Shown here piece after piece: positions 1-7,795 of a stretch of DNA of 16,507 nucleotides (its first letter is position 1; each line of letters begins with the position of its first letter). The stretch lies in IMG/VR virus record IMGVR_UViG_2740892442_000006, one strand, 5' to 3'. The stretch is from a virus. Lineage: Duplodnaviria > Heunggongvirae > Uroviricota > Caudoviricetes. The notes beneath the pieces were generated by a model, which saw only the letters and a list, made by a program, of their open reading frames with translations, did no database searches and was not told the DNA's origin. Position numbers and translations under genes: made by a program.

Positions 1-114
1 ACCCTATGCATCGAAGAGTATTATTCTGCTACCGGAATTTATAATTATGATGATGCTGATGAGCAAACTGAGTTACTTAAAAATGCATTAAGGGACTATA
101 AAATGGCTCACTAG
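1..114 (+). CDS. Possible 3' end of an upstream ORF that continues beyond the window start; product unknown
   Basis: Frame 1 is open from position 1 to a TAG at 112-114 (37 codons, ...LRDYKMAH*). Too short to assess further. Confidence 0.3.
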   Translation, partial: TLCIEEYYSATGIYNYDDADEQTELLKNALRDYKMAH

Positions 115-183
115 TGAAAAGAGGCTAACTTGTATTAGCTCAAACTTGATCTTACACTTTTACTGCATAGGGCTTAACCTAAG

Positions 184-218
184 CTGACAGTCCGCTCTGT
201 GCCAGAAGCGGACGTTAG
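184..218. repeat. Palindromic repeat, copy 1 (internal hairpin GTCCGCT-N10-AGCGGAC)
   Basis: Read directly: CTGACAGTCCGCTCTGTGCCAGAAGCGGACGTTAG. The 7-bp arms at 190-196 and 207-213 are exact reverse complements. An inverted copy lies at 4194-4228 and a partial direct copy at 3007-3023. Confidence 0.7.
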
Positions 219-288
219 CCATAGTGAATAATGCACAATGCAGTGACTGGATACAGATATGGGAAACTATTACTTTTAAAGTCCGACA

Positions 289-316
289 TTCTTGATTCTT
301 GATTCTTGATTCTTGA
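289..316. repeat. Tandem heptamer repeat (TTCTTGA)x4, followed by a degenerate fifth unit TTACTTA at 317-323
   Basis: Read directly: four perfect head-to-tail copies, about 120 bp upstream of the ORF at 435. Confidence 0.9.
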
Positions 317-434
317 TTACTTAATCTAAGTAACCGTGCATTTTTATCCAGCTTCAACTATCCAATGAACCAGTATGTTCTGTAACATAAAAGCAGGCTA
401 TTTAGCCACAATCAATTGATAATTAGGCACTTAT

Positions 435-1487
435 ATGAAACTAAAAAAAATGCTTGAAATGGATTTCATCAAGGAGTTTCAAGAGCACCTAGAAACTGAC
501 TTTGAGCATGAACTCTTACATGCCAGTCTTCGCAACTATTGTTCTCATGGTAATCCTCTGCGCTTCAACAACTTTGCATTTGCAATACGTGAGCTAATAA
601 ATCATGTGCTGAAACGACTGGCACCAAATGACAGAGTTATGGCGTCTCCATGGTTCACTAAAAACAAAAATAACGCCACTGTTACCCGTAAACAGCAAGC
701 AAAATACATCGCCCAGAAGCATATACCCGATCAACTTCTTGATGATGTAGCTATCGAAAGACTAGATGATGGTATAGCATGGTTCAATAAAAACTATTCT
801 TCTTTAAACGATTACACCCATATTAGCGAACATTCATTTGATAGTAACCCCAAACAGTTTTTTGAGAGTGCTAAACTAATAATAGAACTGTGTAACATAA
901 TATTCGATACCTTCGATGAACTTGAGCGTGTTATTACCGAATCAATAATCGAGGAAGTACAGAATGAAGTTACTGACATCACAATGAATAATATCCCTGA
1001 CGAACTGGATATATTATCTTCACAAACAACTGTTGATTGGTGCAATGTTGAATCCATTGAGTTGCTGAACCTTGACGAAAATTATATTTATCTTTTGGTG
1101 CGCGGAATAGTTGAAATTACTAGGCAATACGGGCGTGGTGAGGATTACTTTGCACAGCAAGATTCTTATCCCTTCAAGTTTGCAGTCTCTATTCGCACTG
1201 ATAATTTCAATTTAATAGCACCATTACTTAACACTGTAGTAGTGGATACAGGCTCATGGTATGACGATGGCGAAGGATCTGCTCATTATGACACAATTTA
1301 TACAACCTCCAGATTTTTGGAGATGATCTCACATATAAAAATTAAACCAAAAACAAAGAGAAGATTGTTTCCTGAGCTTAGTACAGTAGTAACACTAGGG
1401 ATTCATGAAAGTGAAGGTATATCAGAATCGGTCGTCCCAGAAATATGTCATCTAAATCAAGGAAGCTTCAATTTAACTGAATTTTAG
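435..1487 (+). CDS. Hypothetical protein (cargo ORF A, 350 aa); no family recognised; contains an R-x4-H motif (RNYCSH, residues 33-38)
   Basis: Long ORF with an ATG start and a weak AGG upstream; first gene of a co-directional cluster in the AT-rich island. No ATPase or other catalytic signature recognised. Confidence 0.75.
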   Translation: MKLKKMLEMDFIKEFQEHLETDFEHELLHASLRNYCSHGNPLRFNNFAFAIRELINHVLKRLAPNDRVMASPWFTKNKNNATVTRKQQAKYIAQKHIPDQLLDDVAIERLDDGIAWFNKNYSSLNDYTHISEHSFDSNPKQFFESAKLIIELCNIIFDTFDELERVITESIIEEVQNEVTDITMNNIPDELDILSSQTTVDWCNVESIELLNLDENYIYLLVRGIVEITRQYGRGEDYFAQQDSYPFKFAVSIRTDNFNLIAPLLNTVVVDTGSWYDDGEGSAHYDTIYTTSRFLEMISHIKIKPKTKRRLFPELSTVVTLGIHESEGISESVVPEICHLNQGSFNLTEF

Positions 1488-1503
1488 GATTATCTATGGA
1501 GAG

Positions 1504-2442
1504 ATGAAAATGTCTAATAAGATCTATAGCCTACAAAGAATGCCTACTGAAGCATTTAAGATATTTGCAATGTCATTGCCACATGGGCCTAATTATGGTA
1601 ATGCGGAATTACTTTCCGCTTGGTCAAATGAAAAAGGGCTTGGATATGGTGCAGTCCTTCAATACAGCAAAAATTCATATGGCCTTGTTGTGCTCAGGCG
1701 ACGGGAAGATTATGTGCTGGTACCTCTCGAGCATGAGATGTGTTTTACCGAGCAGGAGGCATTGGTGCATCTTGATAAGCACCTTTCAGCCGGAGGAGAT
1801 TTATTACCGATTCCATCTGGGCAATCACGTAGAGCCCGACTGGATCATGTTGGTGAGCGGAATGTTTGTCAGGCATTTATACAATTATCGTCCACGATAA
1901 AGTACCGAGGAGCATTTCATTTAATTGTCGAGCTCTATCTGGCATTACCAAAACCTGATGATAACTTCAGAACCGATCTCCAGACCCAAGGATTCAACTC
2001 TAGAATCTGGGAGCTATACCTTTTCGCATGTTTTAAAGAGCAGGGAATTAAAGTTTTTCAAGATTATCCATCTCCGGATTTTATGCTCATGAACGGTAAT
2101 AACAAAGCATATGTTGAGGCGGTCACCGCGAATCCAACTGGTCCGGGCAGCCTAAAGTTGCCTCAAACACAATTCCCCCCCGGAGATCGATTAGCTCGCA
2201 CAGCAGGTGATATGGCAGCACGGTTCGCTAAGACCATCAGATCTAAACTCCAGAGAAAGTATGAAGAACTACCGCATGTTAAAGGATTTCCATTTGCAAT
2301 CGCTATAGCGGATTTTAGCGGTGGGGGCACTATGGTCTGGTCTCGCGAGTCACTTCCAACCTATTTGTATGGGCAAACCGCACATACAGTCAAAACATCC
2401 AAAGGTATGAAGCTGCTGCATTATCAATTGAAAAGCTTTTAG
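1504..2442 (+). CDS. Hypothetical protein (cargo ORF B, 312 aa); family unknown
   Basis: ATG at 1504 preceded by GGAGAG at 1496-1501, 16 bp after the ORF A stop. The downstream frame-0 ORF overlaps its 3' end, so B and C may be one gene split by a frameshift. Confidence 0.75.
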   Translation: MKMSNKIYSLQRMPTEAFKIFAMSLPHGPNYGNAELLSAWSNEKGLGYGAVLQYSKNSYGLVVLRRREDYVLVPLEHEMCFTEQEALVHLDKHLSAGGDLLPIPSGQSRRARLDHVGERNVCQAFIQLSSTIKYRGAFHLIVELYLALPKPDDNFRTDLQTQGFNSRIWELYLFACFKEQGIKVFQDYPSPDFMLMNGNNKAYVEAVTANPTGPGSLKLPQTQFPPGDRLARTAGDMAARFAKTIRSKLQRKYEELPHVKGFPFAIAIADFSGGGTMVWSRESLPTYLYGQTAHTVKTSKGMKLLHYQLKSF

Positions 2443-2504
2443 GCCATGTAAATATTCCGGCAGGACTATTTAACCACCCAGAGATTGAAAATTTATCTGC
2501 TATC

Positions 2505-2903
2505 TTGTTTAGTAATGCTGGAACATTGCCAAAATTCCAGCGAATGGCAATCCAAGCTGAATTTTCCTCACCTATTGTGAAAGCCCGCAGGGTTGGGATT
2601 TTATTTGATAGGACTGAAGGGGCCTTGGAACCAATTGACTTCGATCTAGATATTCAATCGCCTGAATATATTAATCTTTGCGATGGCAAAGAATTTTGGT
2701 GTTTTGAACTTGAAGTATTTCATAACCCTAATGCTGCTTATCCAATGTCCCATGATTTCCTGCCGGGGGCAACACATTGGTTTGAACACAATGGAGAGAT
2801 CATCTGTGAGACCCAATGGAAAAACCAGGTACTTGCATCAGTAACCGAGTTTAGTATTGTTCCAGATGTCGCCGATAAACTCAAAGCCAAGGAAAAGCCG
2901 TGA
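2505..2903 (+). CDS. Hypothetical protein (cargo ORF C, 132 aa as listed); possibly the C-terminal continuation of ORF B
   Basis: The frame is open from 2319 and reads like protein (...YEAAALSIEKLLGHVNIPAGLFNHPEIENLSAILF...), but has no ATG/GTG/TTG before the TTG at 2505 and no convincing Shine-Dalgarno before 2505 or the ATG at 2544. Confidence 0.5.
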   Translation: MFSNAGTLPKFQRMAIQAEFSSPIVKARRVGILFDRTEGALEPIDFDLDIQSPEYINLCDGKEFWCFELEVFHNPNAAYPMSHDFLPGATHWFEHNGEIICETQWKNQVLASVTEFSIVPDVADKLKAKEKP

Positions 2904-3006
2904 TTGCTTGATGCAAGCATATTCTTGAAAGAAGAAAATTGACAAGATTTAAAACTAATAATGAAGGGGGGAATGTTACGAGGTTGTCAGGGCTGCAACA
3001 GCAGCC

Positions 3007-3023
3007 CTGTGTCAGAAGCGGAC
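3007..3023. repeat. Partial direct copy of the palindromic repeat (CTGTGTCAGAAGCGGAC), just after an 8-bp-stem hairpin at 2988-3009
   Basis: 16 of 17 bases match copy 1 at 197-213. Hairpin CAGGGCTG-caacag-CAGCCCTG read directly. Sits between ORF C and the ORF at 3080. Confidence 0.6.
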
Positions 3024-3079
3024 ATTTTAAGCATTCGAGTGTAAGGTCTGTTTTTTAATTTGTAATTTTAGGAGGTAAC

Positions 3080-4033
3080 ATGCCAAAGAAAAGACGGTCT
3101 ATTAGCCAGGTAAAAGAAGACATTTCAATCAGGGTTCTGCGGGAAAAACTACCTCGCGAATGGGTCGTACATAGCTATGGCGCTGACTATGGTATTGATT
3201 GCGTTGTTGAATTATTTGATTTTATTGATGACAGTGAAAGTATTGCAGAAACCCTTGGTGAAAACTTCTTTGTACAACTAAAATCTTCAGATTGTATTGA
3301 ATATTGTACACGTAAAGCCTATGCTCGTGGAAATGTAACCAAAGGAAAGTTAACAGAAGATAAAAGCGATTTTGTCGAAATCCCTGTCGCAAAATTCAAG
3401 TTAGATATATCAGACATTTTGACTGTTCAGTCTATAGGTATTGCAATTCCAGTATTATTGATACTAGTTGACACTAATACAGAAAAGGCATTTTTTATTT
3501 GCCTTAATGATTACATAGATAAAGTTCTCATACCAGAAGACCCGAATTATTCTAAAAAAGACTCAAAGACTATATATATACCTCTTGAAAATGAAATTCT
3601 GGATGATGAAGATGCGCTTGTTCCATTACGTGCATATGGTAAAAGATCAAAAATGTATGGCGCATTCTCACTTTTTAACTATCAATTAAAAGAAATAAAC
3701 CGATTACAAGGTAAAGCGGCCGTACAATTTCCTGTCTCTTTCGATGAAGCTATAGAGATGGTAAATAACTTTATTGTAATTGCTCTTAGACAAGATATAT
3801 GGTCTGGTCATGAATTTTGGAAGCCGATGGTATCGAGCCAAAAGGAGTTGATCCAACTTCAAATAGATATTGATAAAGAGGTAAAACCTGAACATTATGA
3901 ACATTTTTTGAGTTACTGTTCCGAAGTGGTTTGGCATAAGTTAACAAATCTTTCAAATATGTATGAGGAGCTTGTTAGAGAATGGTTCATGCCAACCTTG
4001 CTAGCGACATTAACATCAGCCCGCCCTAAATAA
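3080..4033 (+). CDS. Hypothetical protein (cargo ORF D, 317 aa) with an N-terminal PD-(D/E)xK-like nuclease-fold motif candidate (DUF4365-like by recollection)
   Basis: Strong RBS AGGAGGT at 3068-3074, six nt before the ATG. N-terminal motifs in order: DYGID, VVELFDF, FVQLKSS, consistent with a D...E...QxK restriction-endonuclease-like core. Family assignment is from memory, not a search. Confidence 0.8.
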   Translation: MPKKRRSISQVKEDISIRVLREKLPREWVVHSYGADYGIDCVVELFDFIDDSESIAETLGENFFVQLKSSDCIEYCTRKAYARGNVTKGKLTEDKSDFVEIPVAKFKLDISDILTVQSIGIAIPVLLILVDTNTEKAFFICLNDYIDKVLIPEDPNYSKKDSKTIYIPLENEILDDEDALVPLRAYGKRSKMYGAFSLFNYQLKEINRLQGKAAVQFPVSFDEAIEMVNNFIVIALRQDIWSGHEFWKPMVSSQKELIQLQIDIDKEVKPEHYEHFLSYCSEVVWHKLTNLSNMYEELVREWFMPTLLATLTSARPK

Positions 4034-4193
4034 TAATAGCAATGCTACGCAAAAGCATCCTAGCCCTAAATTCTTAAATAAGGGCTTCATATCAAATTGA
4101 AGCCTTTGTGAACAATAGAAACAACACTAAAAGACACCCCTATCACATTTAGTTGAATAGAAAAATAATAATGCGCCCACGACGATACAATTA

Positions 4194-4228
4194 CTAACGT
4201 CCGCTCCTCGCTCAAAGCAGACTGTCAG
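4194..4228. repeat. Palindromic repeat, copy 3, inverted relative to copy 1
   Basis: The reverse complement of 4194-4228 matches 184-218 at about 30 of 35 positions, by hand alignment. A further ACTGTCAG motif lies at 4253-4260. Confidence 0.65.
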
Positions 4229-4293
4229 ATTTGATTGCATTTTGCCTACGCAAACTGTCAGTTCGAGCCTGAGCTAATACAGCTAACTGGATG

Positions 4294-5397
4294 TTAGCCT
4301 TTTTTAATTTTATTTTTAGATTGTTCAATGTGATGATTTAACACTTCTCTCTTTGCCTCTTCATAGGTTAGCTCTCCATTGATTACCTTATTTTTTATTT
4401 CATTAAAAAATGAGGAGCCTTTGGGATCTTTACTTGATAAAAAAAGACTGGCTTCAGCTCTCCGAAAAGCTTCTTTCCTTGCTTCTATAGAAAATGAATT
4501 AGCAGGGTTATTTTTGTTCATAAGTTGAAGTGCCTTATTATTTATATTCGGGATGTTTTTATCTACAAGAGTTAGTCTTAACTCCGAGAATTTATTTCCT
4601 GATATTTTATAACACTGATTTTCATTTTTTTCAATATAAAGAGATTTGCTTTCTGCGCTACCACATGTCGTAGATGTTCTTGCATCAAGAAAAATAAACT
4701 TTTCTTGAAATCTTTCAATATATTTCATTGCTGTCATGCTAATAATAAAAAGAGCAACTGACACAGCAAAAAGGGATAAGCCTGATACTAAACGATTAAA
4801 ATTAAATTTCCTTTTAATAACTAATGAACTGGCTAGATTGACCATGTTATAGGGGACCATAATTATGAGTCCTATTAATATTATTTTTTCAGGAAGATTG
4901 TTCACTTGTATATGATGTTGAGCCAAGTTTCCAATATATACTGAAATCATAGAGGATATTACTATTTTTGCTGGGGATACATCTCGCAAAAATATGTATA
5001 TATAGACTGTAGTTGCACAAATCATTGCTCCTATTGGAAATGAGAGCATGAAAGCATAAGCTAATGTTGAGTAATTAAGATTTTCTGGGGCTATACCATA
5101 AGCTATGTCAAGCTTAAACTTTGCGATCCATAAGCATACTGAATATGTAAAGCCAGTTACGCCCCACTTAACCACTGTATTATTAAATACTTTATTTAAT
5201 AAATCACGATATCCTATGTATACACTGGTTAATAAAGCTATAGATGATAGAAAAATTGGAGCGGCAATGTATATATTTTCTAGCCATAATGGGTTTTCTA
5301 CAATCAAGTATCCAAAAGGTATTAAGTATATTATAGCCAATAGTTGAGGGTTGTTTAATTTGGATGATGCGTCAACCAAATTATTTTTATATTCCAT
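4294..5397 (-). CDS. Multi-pass inner-membrane protein (about seven hydrophobic segments in the N-terminal ~225 aa, then a ~140-aa charged soluble C-terminal domain); function unknown
   Basis: 367-aa ORF with AGGA about 7 nt upstream of the ATG. Starts 9 bp after the stop of the integrase at 5407-6480, on the same strand. Very AT-rich. Confidence 0.8.
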   Translation of the reverse strand: MEYKNNLVDASSKLNNPQLLAIIYLIPFGYLIVENPLWLENIYIAAPIFLSSIALLTSVYIGYRDLLNKVFNNTVVKWGVTGFTYSVCLWIAKFKLDIAYGIAPENLNYSTLAYAFMLSFPIGAMICATTVYIYIFLRDVSPAKIVISSMISVYIGNLAQHHIQVNNLPEKIILIGLIIMVPYNMVNLASSLVIKRKFNFNRLVSGLSLFAVSVALFIISMTAMKYIERFQEKFIFLDARTSTTCGSAESKSLYIEKNENQCYKISGNKFSELRLTLVDKNIPNINNKALQLMNKNNPANSFSIEARKEAFRRAEASLFLSSKDPKGSSFFNEIKNKVINGELTYEEAKREVLNHHIEQSKNKIKKG

Positions 5398-5406
5398 ATA
5401 ACGTCC

Positions 5407-6480
5407 TTATTTCAACTTTAACGCCAAATCTTCAGCTTTTGGATGATAATACCGCATTAGCATTCTTGGATCTTTATGTCCTGTAATTTTGGTCAGTTCA
5501 TGCATAGGGAAAATTTCAGCAAGTCGAGAAGTTGCTTCATGTCGAAGGTCATGAAATCTTAAATCTTTAAGGAATGATTCATCACATAATGAGTTTGTTT
5601 TCTCGTATCGTTCTCTGGCTCGTTTTACAGCTCGGTCAAAAGCTCGGGTAATCGCGTCTGCACGCATATCAAAAACCTTATCAGCAGCTGGCTTAGAATG
5701 TTCCTTGAGACTGGACAGTATCGTGATGGCTTTCGTTGATAAAGGGACATCGCGGGCATTACCATTCTTAGTATCCGGCAGATGTGCAACTCGCCGATCA
5801 AGATCGATAAAGCGCCATCGAAGATCTGCGATTTCGCTACGGCGCATGGCTGTCTCTAACGCCAGAAGAATGATTGCTGGCAATACTAATGAATGTGTTG
5901 CGGCGATGATATGTTCGATCTCGTTGGCTATTTCCTTTCCTGACGTAACACCGGTTTTCTCAGAAACTACAGGCAGCGCTTCCAGGCGTCTGGTCCTGGA
6001 GTTCTTGGGTTGAGGTTTGCGAATGGCCTCTACGGGGTTCAGCAGGCTCTCCATGCCCCATTCTTTCCGCGAAACGTTGAATACATGAGAAAGTAAGGCC
6101 AAACGCCTTAAAACGGTTGCAGGGGCATAGATTTTCAACCATTCATCTCTCAGCTTGGCGACATCGGCACTCCTGATGCTGGCCATATAGTTTTTCGCCA
6201 GCTGAGTGCCTTTTAGTATCCGCACCAATGATTGGTCTTGCACTGCCCCTTTTTTGTCGGGAACAATCTCTTTTTCATATCGCGTTAGGGCTTCATACAA
6301 TGTCGTAGATTCCGCTTCGCTGCGGCTAAGCCAAACTCCTCTCGCCATTTCTGACTCGATCATTTTGGCCCAAGCTTCTGCTTCTACTTTGGTGTTAAAG
6401 GTTTTGGTTTGAGAGGGAAAACCTCGTTTACGGATTTGAGCTTCCCATTGGTAGTTACCACGTTTGCGTATAGTCGCCAT
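5407..6480 (-). CDS. int: Tyrosine-type site-specific integrase (island integrase)
   Basis: C-terminal catalytic signature FHDLRHEATS...MRYYHP (H-x-x-R-H box and tyrosine). The ORF track starts at a TTG at 6510; the ATG at 6480 (MATIRKRGNYQWEAQIRKRG...) is the more likely start. Confidence 0.9.
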   Translation of the reverse strand: MATIRKRGNYQWEAQIRKRGFPSQTKTFNTKVEAEAWAKMIESEMARGVWLSRSEAESTTLYEALTRYEKEIVPDKKGAVQDQSLVRILKGTQLAKNYMASIRSADVAKLRDEWLKIYAPATVLRRLALLSHVFNVSRKEWGMESLLNPVEAIRKPQPKNSRTRRLEALPVVSEKTGVTSGKEIANEIEHIIAATHSLVLPAIILLALETAMRRSEIADLRWRFIDLDRRVAHLPDTKNGNARDVPLSTKAITILSSLKEHSKPAADKVFDMRADAITRAFDRAVKRARERYEKTNSLCDESFLKDLRFHDLRHEATSRLAEIFPMHELTKITGHKDPRMLMRYYHPKAEDLALKLK

Positions 6481-6568
6481 TTCTGTCTGATTCCTAACGA
6501 ACTGTGGCAATATTGTGGCAAAAAATCCATTTAAATTCGATAGGTATTGATTTTACAAGATCAATTTA

Positions 6569-6617
6569 CGCATTCGTAATGCGAAGGTCGTAGGTTCGAC
6601 TCCTATTATCGGCACCA
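6569..6617 (+). tRNA. 3'-terminal 49-nt fragment of tRNA-Thr (anticodon CGU); not a complete tRNA; likely an att-core direct-repeat copy
   Basis: Anticodon stem-loop with CGT at 6575-6577, T-arm GGTTCGACTCC, 3' acceptor strand and CCA. Matches the 3' part of enterobacterial thrW as I recall it. The upstream sequence has no 5' acceptor strand (GCCGATA) or D-arm. Confidence 0.8.
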
Positions 6618-6631
6618 TTTAAATCAATAAG

Positions 6632-7795
6632 TTACACATCATTAGTACCTTCCTTATTTTTTGACTGGGACAAATTTGGGACCGATGGGTTCAGGATCGA
6701 GTCTATTTGCCGTGCGTGTTCGGTAAGGTGATTAGGTGCAAGGTGAGCATATCGACGAACCATTTCGATAGACTCCCACCCTCCCATTTCCTGTAACACT
6801 GACAACGGGACTCCGGCTTGAACCAGCCAACTTGCCCAGGTGTGTCTCAAGTCGTGAAATCTGAAATCATCAATACCAGCCCGTCTCAGCGCCGCTTTCC
6901 AGGCTGTGTTTGCGTCATACCGCATCTTCCTTACTGTTGGCGCTTTCGTTCCGTCTGGTTTGGTACAGCTTTCCTTGTACACAAATACCCAACGGTGATG
7001 ATTCCCGATTTGTTTTTTCAATACGCGACATGCAGTATCATTCAGCGCAACGCCAATTGCGCGGTTTGATTTACTCTCTTCCGGGTTTATCCATGCCACC
7101 CGGCGCTGCATATCTATTTGTTGCCATTCAAGGTTGATGATGTTCGAGCGTCTTAAACCTGTTGCCAGTGCAAATTCAACAACAGACTTTAATGGCTCCG
7201 GACATTCATCAATCAGCCTTTGTGCTTCATGGGGCTCCAGCCAGCGGATCCGTTTATTCTTTGGTTGAGGCACTTTAATAATTGGTGCCTTATCCAGCAT
7301 TTTCCATTCACGCTCTGCGGCTCTTAGTAGGGCCTTTATAAATGAAAGATGCGTAGCCTTCGTTGCAACGGACGCTGGTTTTGGCGTGTATTCTGGAACA
7401 GGTTTCCCTTTTTTTCTGCATGCTTCTGCCCTGAGTTTCCAGTTTTCCTCATGACGCCGGTTCGTCATTTTCTGCATTGCTGAATAAATTTTTGATTCAG
7501 TAATGTCTCTTAGTTGCATTCCTGCGAAATGTTGAAGCCAGAATCCGATCCGGCTTTTGTCATCGTCCAGTGATTTTTTATGTGCTTTCTCTTCAAGCCA
7601 CCTGACACACGCTTCCTCGAACGTTATATCAGGTATTTCACCAAGTTTGCTGACCCGCCATGCTTCAGCCTTTAGCTTGTCATGGAGTTCTGTCGCCTGC
7701 CTTTTGTCCTTTGTTCCAAGAGACTGTTTAAATCTTTTACCGTTCGGCAATGTGAAACTGGCGTACCATATTTCACCTCTGCGGAAGAGTGACAT
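6632..7795 (-). CDS. int: Lambdoid (P22/SfV/e14-type) phage integrase
   Basis: N-terminus [34 protein letters not shown] is typical of this enterobacterial prophage integrase group; catalytic [10 protein letters not shown]...VRRYAHL. GAGGAA RBS. The 3' end lies 15 bp from the tRNA-Thr fragment. Confidence 0.92.

Follow-up and report, generated by a model that had tools for sequence, protein, structure and literature searches.

Inverted repeats that flank variable phage cargo are already on record. GenBank entries AJ512676-AJ512685, from P2-like isolates, annotate a 'left inverted repeat' and a 'right inverted repeat' in the Z/fun region, where they bracket the variable 'lysogenic conversion' cargo between genes G and FI; these entries are presumably the records of Nilsson, Karlsson and Haggård-Ljungquist (Mol Biol Evol 2004), a work whose title reportedly invokes site-specific recombination. 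The same repeats are found in a different setting in a 16,507-nt stretch of DNA from IMG/VR virus record IMGVR_UViG_2740892442_000006 (Caudoviricetes), hereafter the window, in which two inverted copies (copy 1, 184-218; copy 3, 4194-4228) bracket a group of cargo genes. Judged from sequence, these copies are probably the inner cores of the left (L) and right (R) 86-bp ends of a 4,151-bp non-autonomous transposon that carries integron-like cassette exchange; the transposon level of this model is considered very likely to be correct, and its recombinase level is evenly poised.

An end of the window element aligns to the left inverted repeat of P2-EC30, -EC46, -EC48, -EC53 and -EC67 (75-92% by BLAST), and nhmmer finds the right ends that go with them; on locus L010 it gives E = 1e-20 and 6e-14. 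Both systems bracket variable cargo. The outer termini of the P2 copies are degenerate (TGTATGAGCTCT / TGCACTCACTCA) and retain no clean 7-bp duplication, whereas in the window copy the termini are intact and the duplication is perfect, and an empty site still exists. It also lies in a non-P2 island (traJ/trbJ/trbL, VbhA, integrase) rather than between the tail-fibre assembly gene G and the sheath gene FI, and what it has in common with the Z region is the repeat family. The Z-region inverted repeats are already known from GenBank; the combination described here is that of a non-autonomous transposon with an apparently integron-like cassette platform. A literature search, whose coverage did not extend to Nilsson et al. 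2004, found no description of the duplications of 7 bp, of ends typed as L and R, of the junctions or of the small recombinase, and the repeat sequence itself was not found in the literature searched.

These repeats may explain gene exchange in phage "defence hotspots". The largest survey of P2/P4 hotspots in recent work (NAR 2026, PMC13586616) describes very fast swapping without pseudogenes and transposable elements that are "almost nonexistent"; it considers that homologous recombination hardly explains exchange with unrelated elements and leaves the mechanism of swapping unresolved. Gene-based screens miss the element family because it carries no transposase gene.

The element and its insertion site

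When copy 3 is reverse-complemented it is identical to copy 1 at 30 of 35 positions, as an earlier, sequence-only reading of the window had stated; among 300 shuffled versions of the window none gave copy 1 an inverted partner better than 22/35, let alone 30, so the match is far above chance. With up to three mismatches allowed, the inverted-repeat pattern has a single occurrence against an expected count of 0. A repeat search of the window links the inverted pairs 176-225/4187-4236 and 131-160/4252-4281, and the two ends aligned in register (131-216 with 4196-4281) are the same at 59 of 86 positions, the terminal 12 bp being perfect. The insert of 4,151 bp (131-4281) starts with TGTATTAGCTCA and ends with TGAGCTAATACA; in NZ_OY754392 the flanks are directly joined (...GAGGCTAACTGGATGTTAGCCTTTTTT) and the hairpin interrupted in the window is intact. 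Because of the inverted ends, the GCTAACT on both sides and the intact hairpin at the empty site, 131-4281 is read as a transposon insertion, placed in the 5' stem of a terminator hairpin (Table 1). The sequence-only reading had offered 'terminal repeats of a mobilisable cassette' as one explanation of a module of ~4 kb; the discrete insertion, with inverted ends, a 7-bp target duplication and an empty site elsewhere, agrees with that explanation, with borders at 131 and 4281 in place of 184 and 4228.

The window is chromosomal DNA of E. coli, and its positions 1-4600 are 99.9% identical to strain TUM10008. The empty site was checked at the window's own insertion site: 85 E. coli genomes have the locus, 35 of them (L001 and 34 others) empty, with flanks 96-98% identical to the window, and ~26 of the 85 have flanks split into two places and are counted as occupied, those listed being 99.7% identical in the flanks. 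The flank pattern of the occupied sites points to one insertion in one island lineage, apparently followed by exchange of the cargo in place.

The cluster was formerly taken as a single group of four genes with a 17-bp partial direct copy of the repeat inside it, beside another hairpin. This third copy is confirmed: 3004-3026 and 194-216 agree at 87%, and the copy adjoins a hairpin with a perfect 9-bp stem at 2988-3009. The copy (2981-3026) is a cassette junction, and the cluster is therefore two cassettes, A and B. The nuclease homologue of cassette A matches Pfam PF18165/PF18166 and PADLOC Aga_Nuclease (1e-58), and the second gene matches PADLOC PD-T7-1 (4e-83); the latter is intact in loci L002 and L074 (464-466 aa), and in the window a 1-nt deletion after 2411 leads to a stop at 2440-2442, which is either a fresh pseudogene or a sequencing error. 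Two single-base deletions (405-406 and 2411-2412) are the sole differences of the window's copy of the element from the otherwise identical TUM10008 and IMG/VR contig copies. The DUF4365 gene of cassette B matches Pfam PF14280 (2.8e-15). The unit 2981-4223, cassette B with its two cores, stands alone in another island, in NZ_CP182336, where it is 97.4% identical and adjoins a recombinase pseudogene; in L005 the homology of the DUF4365 unit begins at window position 2981.

Inside the element, ~120 bp upstream of the first cargo gene, the heptamer TTCTTGA occurs four times in tandem (289-317); this could be a slippage-prone spacer that affects expression.

Table 1. Coordinates of the element and of its target in the window
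Feature	Position	Strand	Details
Target-site duplication, left	124..130		GCTAACT; single GCTAACT in the empty site GAGGCTAACTGGATGTTAGCC of L001
L-type 86-bp terminal inverted repeat	131..216	+	59/86 against the right end; nhmmer E = 6e-23
Parts of the left end			Terminal TGTATTAGCTCA; CTGNCAS boxes 151-157 and 184-190; core GTCCGCTCTGTGCCAGAAGCGGAC at 190-213; contains copy 1
Cassette A	217..2980	+	pPIWI-associating nuclease homologue 435-1487; PD-T7-1-like gene 1504-2903
Internal cassette junction	2981..3026	+	Palindrome CAGGGCTGC-AACA-GCAGCCCTG (2988-3009) plus L-type core (3001-3026)
Cassette B	3027..4195	+	DUF4365 (restriction-endonuclease-like) gene 3080-4033 plus 3' spacer
R-type 86-bp terminal inverted repeat	4196..4281	-	nhmmer E = 9e-24
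Parts of the right end			Terminal TGTATTAGCTCA on the minus strand; CTGACAG boxes 4222-4228 and 4255-4261; core GTCTGCTTTGAGCGAGGAGCGGAC (4199-4222, plus strand); contains copy 3
Target-site duplication, right	4282..4288		GCTAACT
Interrupted target	4282..4304	+	Terminator hairpin GGCTAAC-TGGAT-GTTAGCC plus T-run, downstream of a small open reading frame ending at 113

Cargo exchange at the cores

Other genomes hold different cargo at the same site. In CT282 the same ends enclose a single Shedu gene (the R end of the Shedu locus L003 is nearly identical), and in TW14425 they enclose a 461-aa gene, with a copy of the insertion sequence (IS) IS3 inserted in the left end; L004 also has an R end nearly identical to that of the window, flanking the 461-aa gene. 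A 417-aa gene is present in M3, TA8571 and XD35 and the 461-aa gene in A30, all with rearranged left sides. Identity among same-site variants ends at the inner foot of the repeats, after ...GCGGAC. Breakpoints were compared nine times at three sites (GCTAACT, CATAAAT and CTATATC/GATATAG); in eight of the nine comparisons positions 1-74 hold at most one difference, and from 75/76 onwards, in the L end as in the R end, the differences come in runs. Since ends from different sites are 20-30% different over positions 1-59, crossovers spread along the ends would give mosaics, and none were seen. The comparison of related genomes suggested by the sequence-only reading thus yielded empty sites and cargo swaps bounded by the repeats, but no inversion.

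Junctions between cassettes have a common layout in multi-cassette elements: an R core in reverse orientation, a short spacer and an L core, placed back to back (L149 14209-14279; three in L155; L157 6451-6520; L179 9936-10006). In P2-like phages the outer termini have decayed and the inner cores are ~90% identical to those of the window, which suggests that something other than transposition keeps the cores conserved.

L- and R-type ends

The L-type consensus is TGTATtAGCTca...cTGaCAc...GGCACAGAGC...AAtCTGACAG.CcGCTCTGTGCCA.aaGCGGAC and the R-type consensus is TGTATTAGCTCAgacttga.CTGAcagtTTtcac.ggcAgcAcac.AtCAAATCTGACAGTCTGcTTtGAGCgAg.AGCGGA. Their cores, GKCMGCTCTGTGCCAnnAGCGGAC for L and GTCTGCTTTGAGCGAnnAGCGGAC for R, differ consistently at five positions, the predicted crossover hexamer included. 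The motif ACTGTCAG/CTGACAG is a box found at positions 21-27 and 54-60 of each end; its second occurrence in the window is at 4254-4261, which corrects the 4253-4260 given earlier. The terminal 12 bp are conserved across genera. A simple motif rule types 24 of 34 complete elements as L+R; in the other 10 at least one end is untyped or mistyped by the rule, and on manual inspection nine fit L+R and one looks L+L.

Each copy in the window had been credited with its own hairpin of 7-bp stem. The hairpin of copy 1 is stable (free energy, dG, -9.3 kcal/mol; z -3.8 against shuffles), but the stem of copy 3 has a central mismatch and is no better than shuffles (dG -2.0, z -0.2). Among L-type ends the longer dyad (positions 34-43 with 64-73) has 89% pairing and the short hairpin 77%. 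The dyads are treated here as probable protein-binding symmetry rather than as a proven fold, and no folded-DNA or folded-RNA function is claimed.

Some ends have undergone secondary changes. In a Citrobacter youngae element (L015, 3020-3072 and 3574-3700) the R end has a 33-bp deletion exactly between its two CTGACAG boxes, and the opposite side has a 39-bp tandem triplication of the L-type core; boxes and cores seem prone to slippage or recombination. A partly deleted IS30-family IS is present in L157 (10595-11452), in L067 (~7054) and in L073 at the same R-core position, between ...CTTTGAGC and TGTGAGTTCAA..., with a 2-bp GC duplication in L157, and the IS30-family IS appears to target the R-type core specifically.

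A 200-aa tyrosine recombinase beside the L-type core

In L005, L151, L160, L178 and L179 the 45 nt of the junction directly follow the stop codon of a gene for a 200-aa tyrosine recombinase, and in the island with a lone cassette B the recombinase gene before the junction is frameshifted. The protein consists of the catalytic domain only. Intact homologues number ~8,000 at E <= 1e-10; the best 120 of these, with 75-97% identity to the query, represent several orders of Gammaproteobacteria (Enterobacterales, Idiomarina and Cycloclasticus-type metagenome-assembled genomes). The residues needed for catalysis (R, K, HxxR, H and Y) are kept. The closest solved structure is XerD, at an E of only ~5e-4; with the NCBIfam model for integron integrases the score is 18.6 bits, where the cutoff is 435, and similarity to FimB/FimE-type invertases is weak and far below the model.

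The surroundings of the gene were compared in 12 loci, which include homologues 78-81% identical to the query in unrelated islands. In all 12 the stop codon is followed within ~10 nt by CAGGGCTG-N4-5-CAGCCCTGTGCCAnnnGCGGAC, after which the sequences diverge into different cargo. In the Proteus/Providencia and E. coli copies an R core cut between positions 68 and 69 precedes the recombinase gene; the gene therefore fills the space between the two cores of an R·L junction, whereas cargo is placed the other way round. It is also found inside complete L...R elements in L157, where the duplication is 6/7 (GTTTAGC/GTTTAGT), and in L179 (Qin prophage). Of 5,426 E. coli genomes 875 carry the gene, Nissle 1917 among them (WP_001305361.1). 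The suggestion that the repeats are recombinase target sites has thus gained circumstantial support, from the cargo swaps at the repeats and the tyrosine recombinase gene directly before the L-type copy.

Recombinase homologues with an L-type core also stand at borders of modules unrelated to defence (L162-L167, L168-L171). One lies between arsenic- and copper-resistance blocks of an element that resembles an integrative and conjugative element (ICE) in marine metagenomes, and in Idiomarina-type contigs one lies between chromosomal gcvP and a mer/Pycsar block; the recombinase system may handle accessory cargo in general.

Distribution and cargo of the family

Among 5,426 complete E. coli genomes, 1,992 have matches to the 86-bp left end, 2,946 in all, and 55 P2-like phages in the phage collection match it as well. 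A consensus R-type end built from related elements is found in 82 plasmids of Klebsiella, Salmonella, Yersinia, Pantoea and others, the terminal 19-mer in more than 120 IMG/VR contigs, and the exact core pattern in Erwinia, Edaphovirga, Providencia, Morganella, Citrobacter, Edwardsiella, Proteus, Serratia, Yersinia, Kluyvera, Lelliottia and Enterobacter. A few dozen loci from E. coli, other Enterobacterales, phages and plasmids were inspected individually. P2-like prophage copies among them lie in the 'Z' region at the border of G and FI and in the gap between D and ogr, with one beside gene A; further contexts are the lambdoid Q-S region, the space between tail-fibre genes, the neighbourhood of a P4-type integrase, the region downstream of argR, and IncI-like and Yersinia plasmids. 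A repeat common throughout genomes in unrelated intergenic sequence had been named as grounds for abandoning the module; in numbers the repeat is indeed common, but the loci examined are borders of variable cargo in mobile elements. The sampled copies likewise do not have the character of REP, BIME or ERIC sequences, as they border accessory cargo in prophages, islands and plasmids and form L/R pairs with target duplications.

Perfect 7-bp duplications flank elements at at least eight unrelated sites (GCTAACT, GTTTATT, CACTATT, CTATATC, CATAAAT, AATCATG, TTTCATG and AATAATT), and the elements range from 616 bp to 8.5 kb. Their cargo is mostly of defence type (Shedu, PD-T7-1, PD-T7-3, PD-T4-2, PD-T4-3, ThsB/TIR, AbiV, GmrSD, Mrr-STAND, DUF2971/PDC-S31 and AAA_15/21 ATPases), includes a TolA-C-like gene and a FadL/MscS/alkylsulfatase set besides, and its genes point either way with respect to the L and R ends. 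No transposase domain was detected with Pfam, PADLOC and NCBIfam in 54 cargo open reading frames (ORFs) and 30 further ORFs (~85 in cargo and flanks together). An all-against-all BLAST of the cargo showed no large protein shared between sites; the elements are considered non-autonomous because their cargo has no transposase domain and no large protein common to the sites. Candidates for an autonomous element did not qualify: the one-ended loci L060, L050 and L085 abut P2 gpA or defence genes, and the plasmid copies are the same small non-autonomous elements. An ORF with HTH_38/rve beside the R end in L157 was rejected as the transposase, as it belongs to the deleted IS of the IS30 family that interrupts the R core there and has duplicated 2 bp.

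The 616-bp member (L086 1860-2475, and ~70 other IMG/VR contigs) is flanked by GTTTATT and has a 130-aa TolA-C-terminal-like protein as its sole ORF. In lambdoid phages like mEp460 this element has a fixed place upstream of the holin gene, and a part in superinfection exclusion is possible. DUF4365 genes are found near elements in other genera as well (L149 27646-30128; L158 14318-16258), in Proteus as a fusion to TPR repeats and in a Yersinia plasmid beside a full-length tyrosine recombinase gene; genes of this kind may often form defence cassettes on their own.

Proposed mechanism and rival explanations

In the favoured model, the whole unit was inserted by cut-and-ligate transposition into the terminator hairpin of a tRNA-linked island, with duplication of 7 bp. 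A DDE-type transposase supplied in trans, proposed because of the inverted ends and the fixed length of the duplication, would recognise the termini TGTATTAGCTCA together with the CTGNCAS boxes. Cassettes bounded by L-type and R-type cores are exchanged or added at the cores, with the 200-aa tyrosine recombinase as the putative catalyst. Positions 69-74, GTGCCA in L and GAGCGA in R, are proposed as heterospecific crossover regions because they are bracketed by the breakpoints 68/69 and 74/75 and differ between the two types; L would pair only with L and R only with R, which would allow cargo to be swapped with neither inversion nor deletion. A single L by L event would release a circle made up of cargo and an R·L junction, or insert such a circle much as an integron takes up a cassette, and this would explain the structure of the junctions. 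For the window this would mean a cassette with the nuclease and the PD-T7-1-like gene and a DUF4365 cassette, the recombinase gene having been lost from the junction 2981-3026. Several parts of the model can be read from the compared loci, namely the carrier without a transposase that is bounded by terminal inverted repeats (TIRs) and target-site duplications, the two end types, the junctions, the swap boundaries between positions 74 and 75, and the pairing of the recombinase gene with an L core; its agents and their chemistry are proposals.

A number of points weigh against the model. No transposase was identified in the cargo and flank ORFs searched, and to our knowledge no transposase family combines 7-bp duplications with these termini. 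The link between recombinase and site consists only of adjacency and breakpoint positions, the upstream R half-site is missing in some recombinase contexts (L168, L172), and the window has no recombinase gene, so that exchange here would be in trans or past. The palindromes show few compensatory changes and the R stem has a T·G pair, so covariation cannot argue for a structural role. The loci were gathered with patterns taken from the repeat itself, which inflates estimates of conservation. Positions 75-76 vary throughout the family, and the boundary between 74 and 75 could also arise from homologous crossovers in the conserved 15-20 bp.

The last point leads to the main rival of the recombinase level, homologous recombination confined to the conserved core. 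Under this explanation the element is a non-autonomous transposon whose ends, along with flanking genes, offer the homology on which RecA or phage recombinases act; cargo turnover then calls for no dedicated enzyme, the small tyrosine recombinase being a passenger or acting in dimer resolution or local inversion; it is held to be unlikely, though the most serious of the alternatives. The ends are common to many mobile elements, the flanks within one site are near-identical and would make phage-by-phage recombination easy, the palindromes lack covariation, and with positions 75-76 variable a boundary at 74/75 is expected of any crossover within 1-74. Donor and recipient ends are, however, ~70-80% identical over positions 1-59, so that mosaics would be expected where same-site variants are almost identical over 1-74; only a block of ~15-20 bp is conserved enough between unrelated elements, and 15-20 bp is judged short for RecA-dependent recombination. 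This explanation also leaves the five-position difference between L and R, the back-to-back junctions and the placement of the recombinase gene between R and L cores unaccounted for.

Readings of the repeats other than as ends and exchange sites fare less well. If they were regulatory boundaries, that is, operators, terminators or insulators that shield cargo transcription from the host element, their position at cargo borders in phage late-gene regions, the stable hairpin of the L-type copy and the better conservation of the inner core than of the outer terminus in P2-like phages would be in keeping with that role. A terminator scan made no call at 184-218 or 4194-4228, however, and neither repeat is followed by a T-tract or has the GC-rich stem-loop plus T-run of a Rho-independent terminator; the nearest terminator-like call is the interrupted target hairpin itself, 4282-4298. 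With no family match in an Rfam search of the repeats, an unfolded R-type copy, cargo genes in both orientations relative to L and R, and target duplications, empty sites and junction copies that it does not account for, the regulatory reading, which had been raised as 'shared operator and terminator elements', is quite improbable. Still less credible, to the point of being barely worth entertaining, is an invertible segment in which an invertase flips 184-4228 between the inverted copies. The repeats are inverted, a tyrosine recombinase family is linked to them and weak NCBIfam similarity to FimB/FimE-type invertases exists, but the internal orientation with respect to the flanks is one and the same in all seven full-length copies from E. 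coli and in the one from IMG/VR; the L and R cores differ at five positions, predicted crossover hexamer included, and the genes inside have their own upstream regions and offer no obvious gain from inversion. The earlier suggestion of invertase targets is dropped on these grounds.

Seen across the family, the favoured model would describe a hitherto unrecognised two-tier gammaproteobacterial platform, in which a transposase-less TIR carrier holds an integron-like system with a 200-aa recombinase and heterospecific L/R cores, and which would drive the rapid swapping of anti-phage systems, both within P2 hotspots and from one phage, satellite, ICE or plasmid to another; so broad a claim is tentative and somewhat doubtful. 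Portable, conserved ends of this family border defence cargo in phages of the P2-like and lambdoid groups, in plasmids and in an ICE-like island, and also beside an integrase of P4 type. The exact swap breakpoints and the candidate recombinase make the question of hotspot swapping directly testable, and the L and R cores could be used as sequence tags for new defence cassettes.

Neighbouring features of the window

On the island traJ, trbJ and trbL and then a small ORF precede the cluster. After it come the gene for a VbhA antitoxin, a hypothetical gene and an integrase, and beyond these a tRNA-like site and a second prophage. Just outside the element (4294-5397, minus strand), the VbhA-family antitoxin gene overlaps a ~296-aa ORF without a Pfam hit; the pair is conserved in both empty and occupied sites and is likely to be a toxin-antitoxin of the island. 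RefSeq annotates a 112-nt 'tRNA-Ser' at ~6536-6647 between two integrase genes, where two integrase-bearing elements abut back to back; ARAGORN finds no tRNA at 6300-6900, and Rfam gives a sub-threshold tRNA match (22 bits, 6543-6610). A reading of the repeats as attachment (att) sites at a tRNA/tmRNA 3' end was rejected, as the similarity is absent and the ARAGORN result is negative for that region. A recombinases-in-trio element was also rejected: two of the three downstream ORFs are integrases, and they come from two adjacent islands.

Comparison with known systems

Among described systems, class 1 integrons in Tn402-type transposons have a comparable layout. Both have a tyrosine recombinase gene beside a primary site, a platform nested in transposon inverted repeats, promoter-independent cassettes, imperfect palindromic sites ending in ...AAC/GTT..., and defence-enriched cargo; the order of recombinase gene, primary site and cassettes is found in all 12 contexts, and this is an analogy of layout. 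The recombinase differs, being 200 aa with a catalytic domain only, compared to ~320 aa with an IntI-specific domain for the IntI type. The sites are of two sequence-conserved types, L and R, whereas attC is defined by structure: the junctions, made of an R core and an L core, are imperfect palindromes AAC-GTCCGC...GCGGAC-GTT that are conserved in sequence and depart from the attC consensus RYYYAAC...GTTRRRY. Cassettes here are often multi-gene with their own upstream regions. Tn402-type elements duplicate 5 bp of target, compared to 7 bp here. A reading of the repeat itself as attC was rejected; the GTTAGCC after copy 1 lacks an R''/L'' partner at attC spacing, and the GTT is inconstant at other borders. 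By its integrase, and probably by its sites, the element is outside the integron family, and its layout is comparable to that of a class 1 integron in Tn402.

The pdif modules of Acinetobacter plasmids are similar in that they are bracketed by inverted short recombination sites, occur as identical modules in different replicons, and carry cargo that includes toxin-antitoxin and resistance genes. They use dif-like 28-mers that are acted on by host XerCD, without outer transposon ends or target duplications, whereas the cores described here have no dif similarity and are accompanied by a dedicated mobile recombinase gene. With derivatives that resemble miniature inverted-repeat transposable elements (Tn3-derived TIMEs and integron mobilisation units), the family shares inverted ends, a target duplication, the lack of a transposase gene and presumed mobilisation in trans; its ends are set apart by their length of 86 bp, their L/R asymmetry and multiple boxes, by the 7-bp duplication, and by an inner end that doubles as a cassette boundary. 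If the heterospecific-site model is true, the recombinase and its sites of ~24 bp would be a compact natural tool for cassette exchange. The proposed logic is that of engineered cassette exchange with heterospecific lox or FRT sites, where a difference in the crossover spacer restricts each site to its like; in the engineered systems this is put to use with Cre or Flp, whereas here the exchange is deduced from natural breakpoints.

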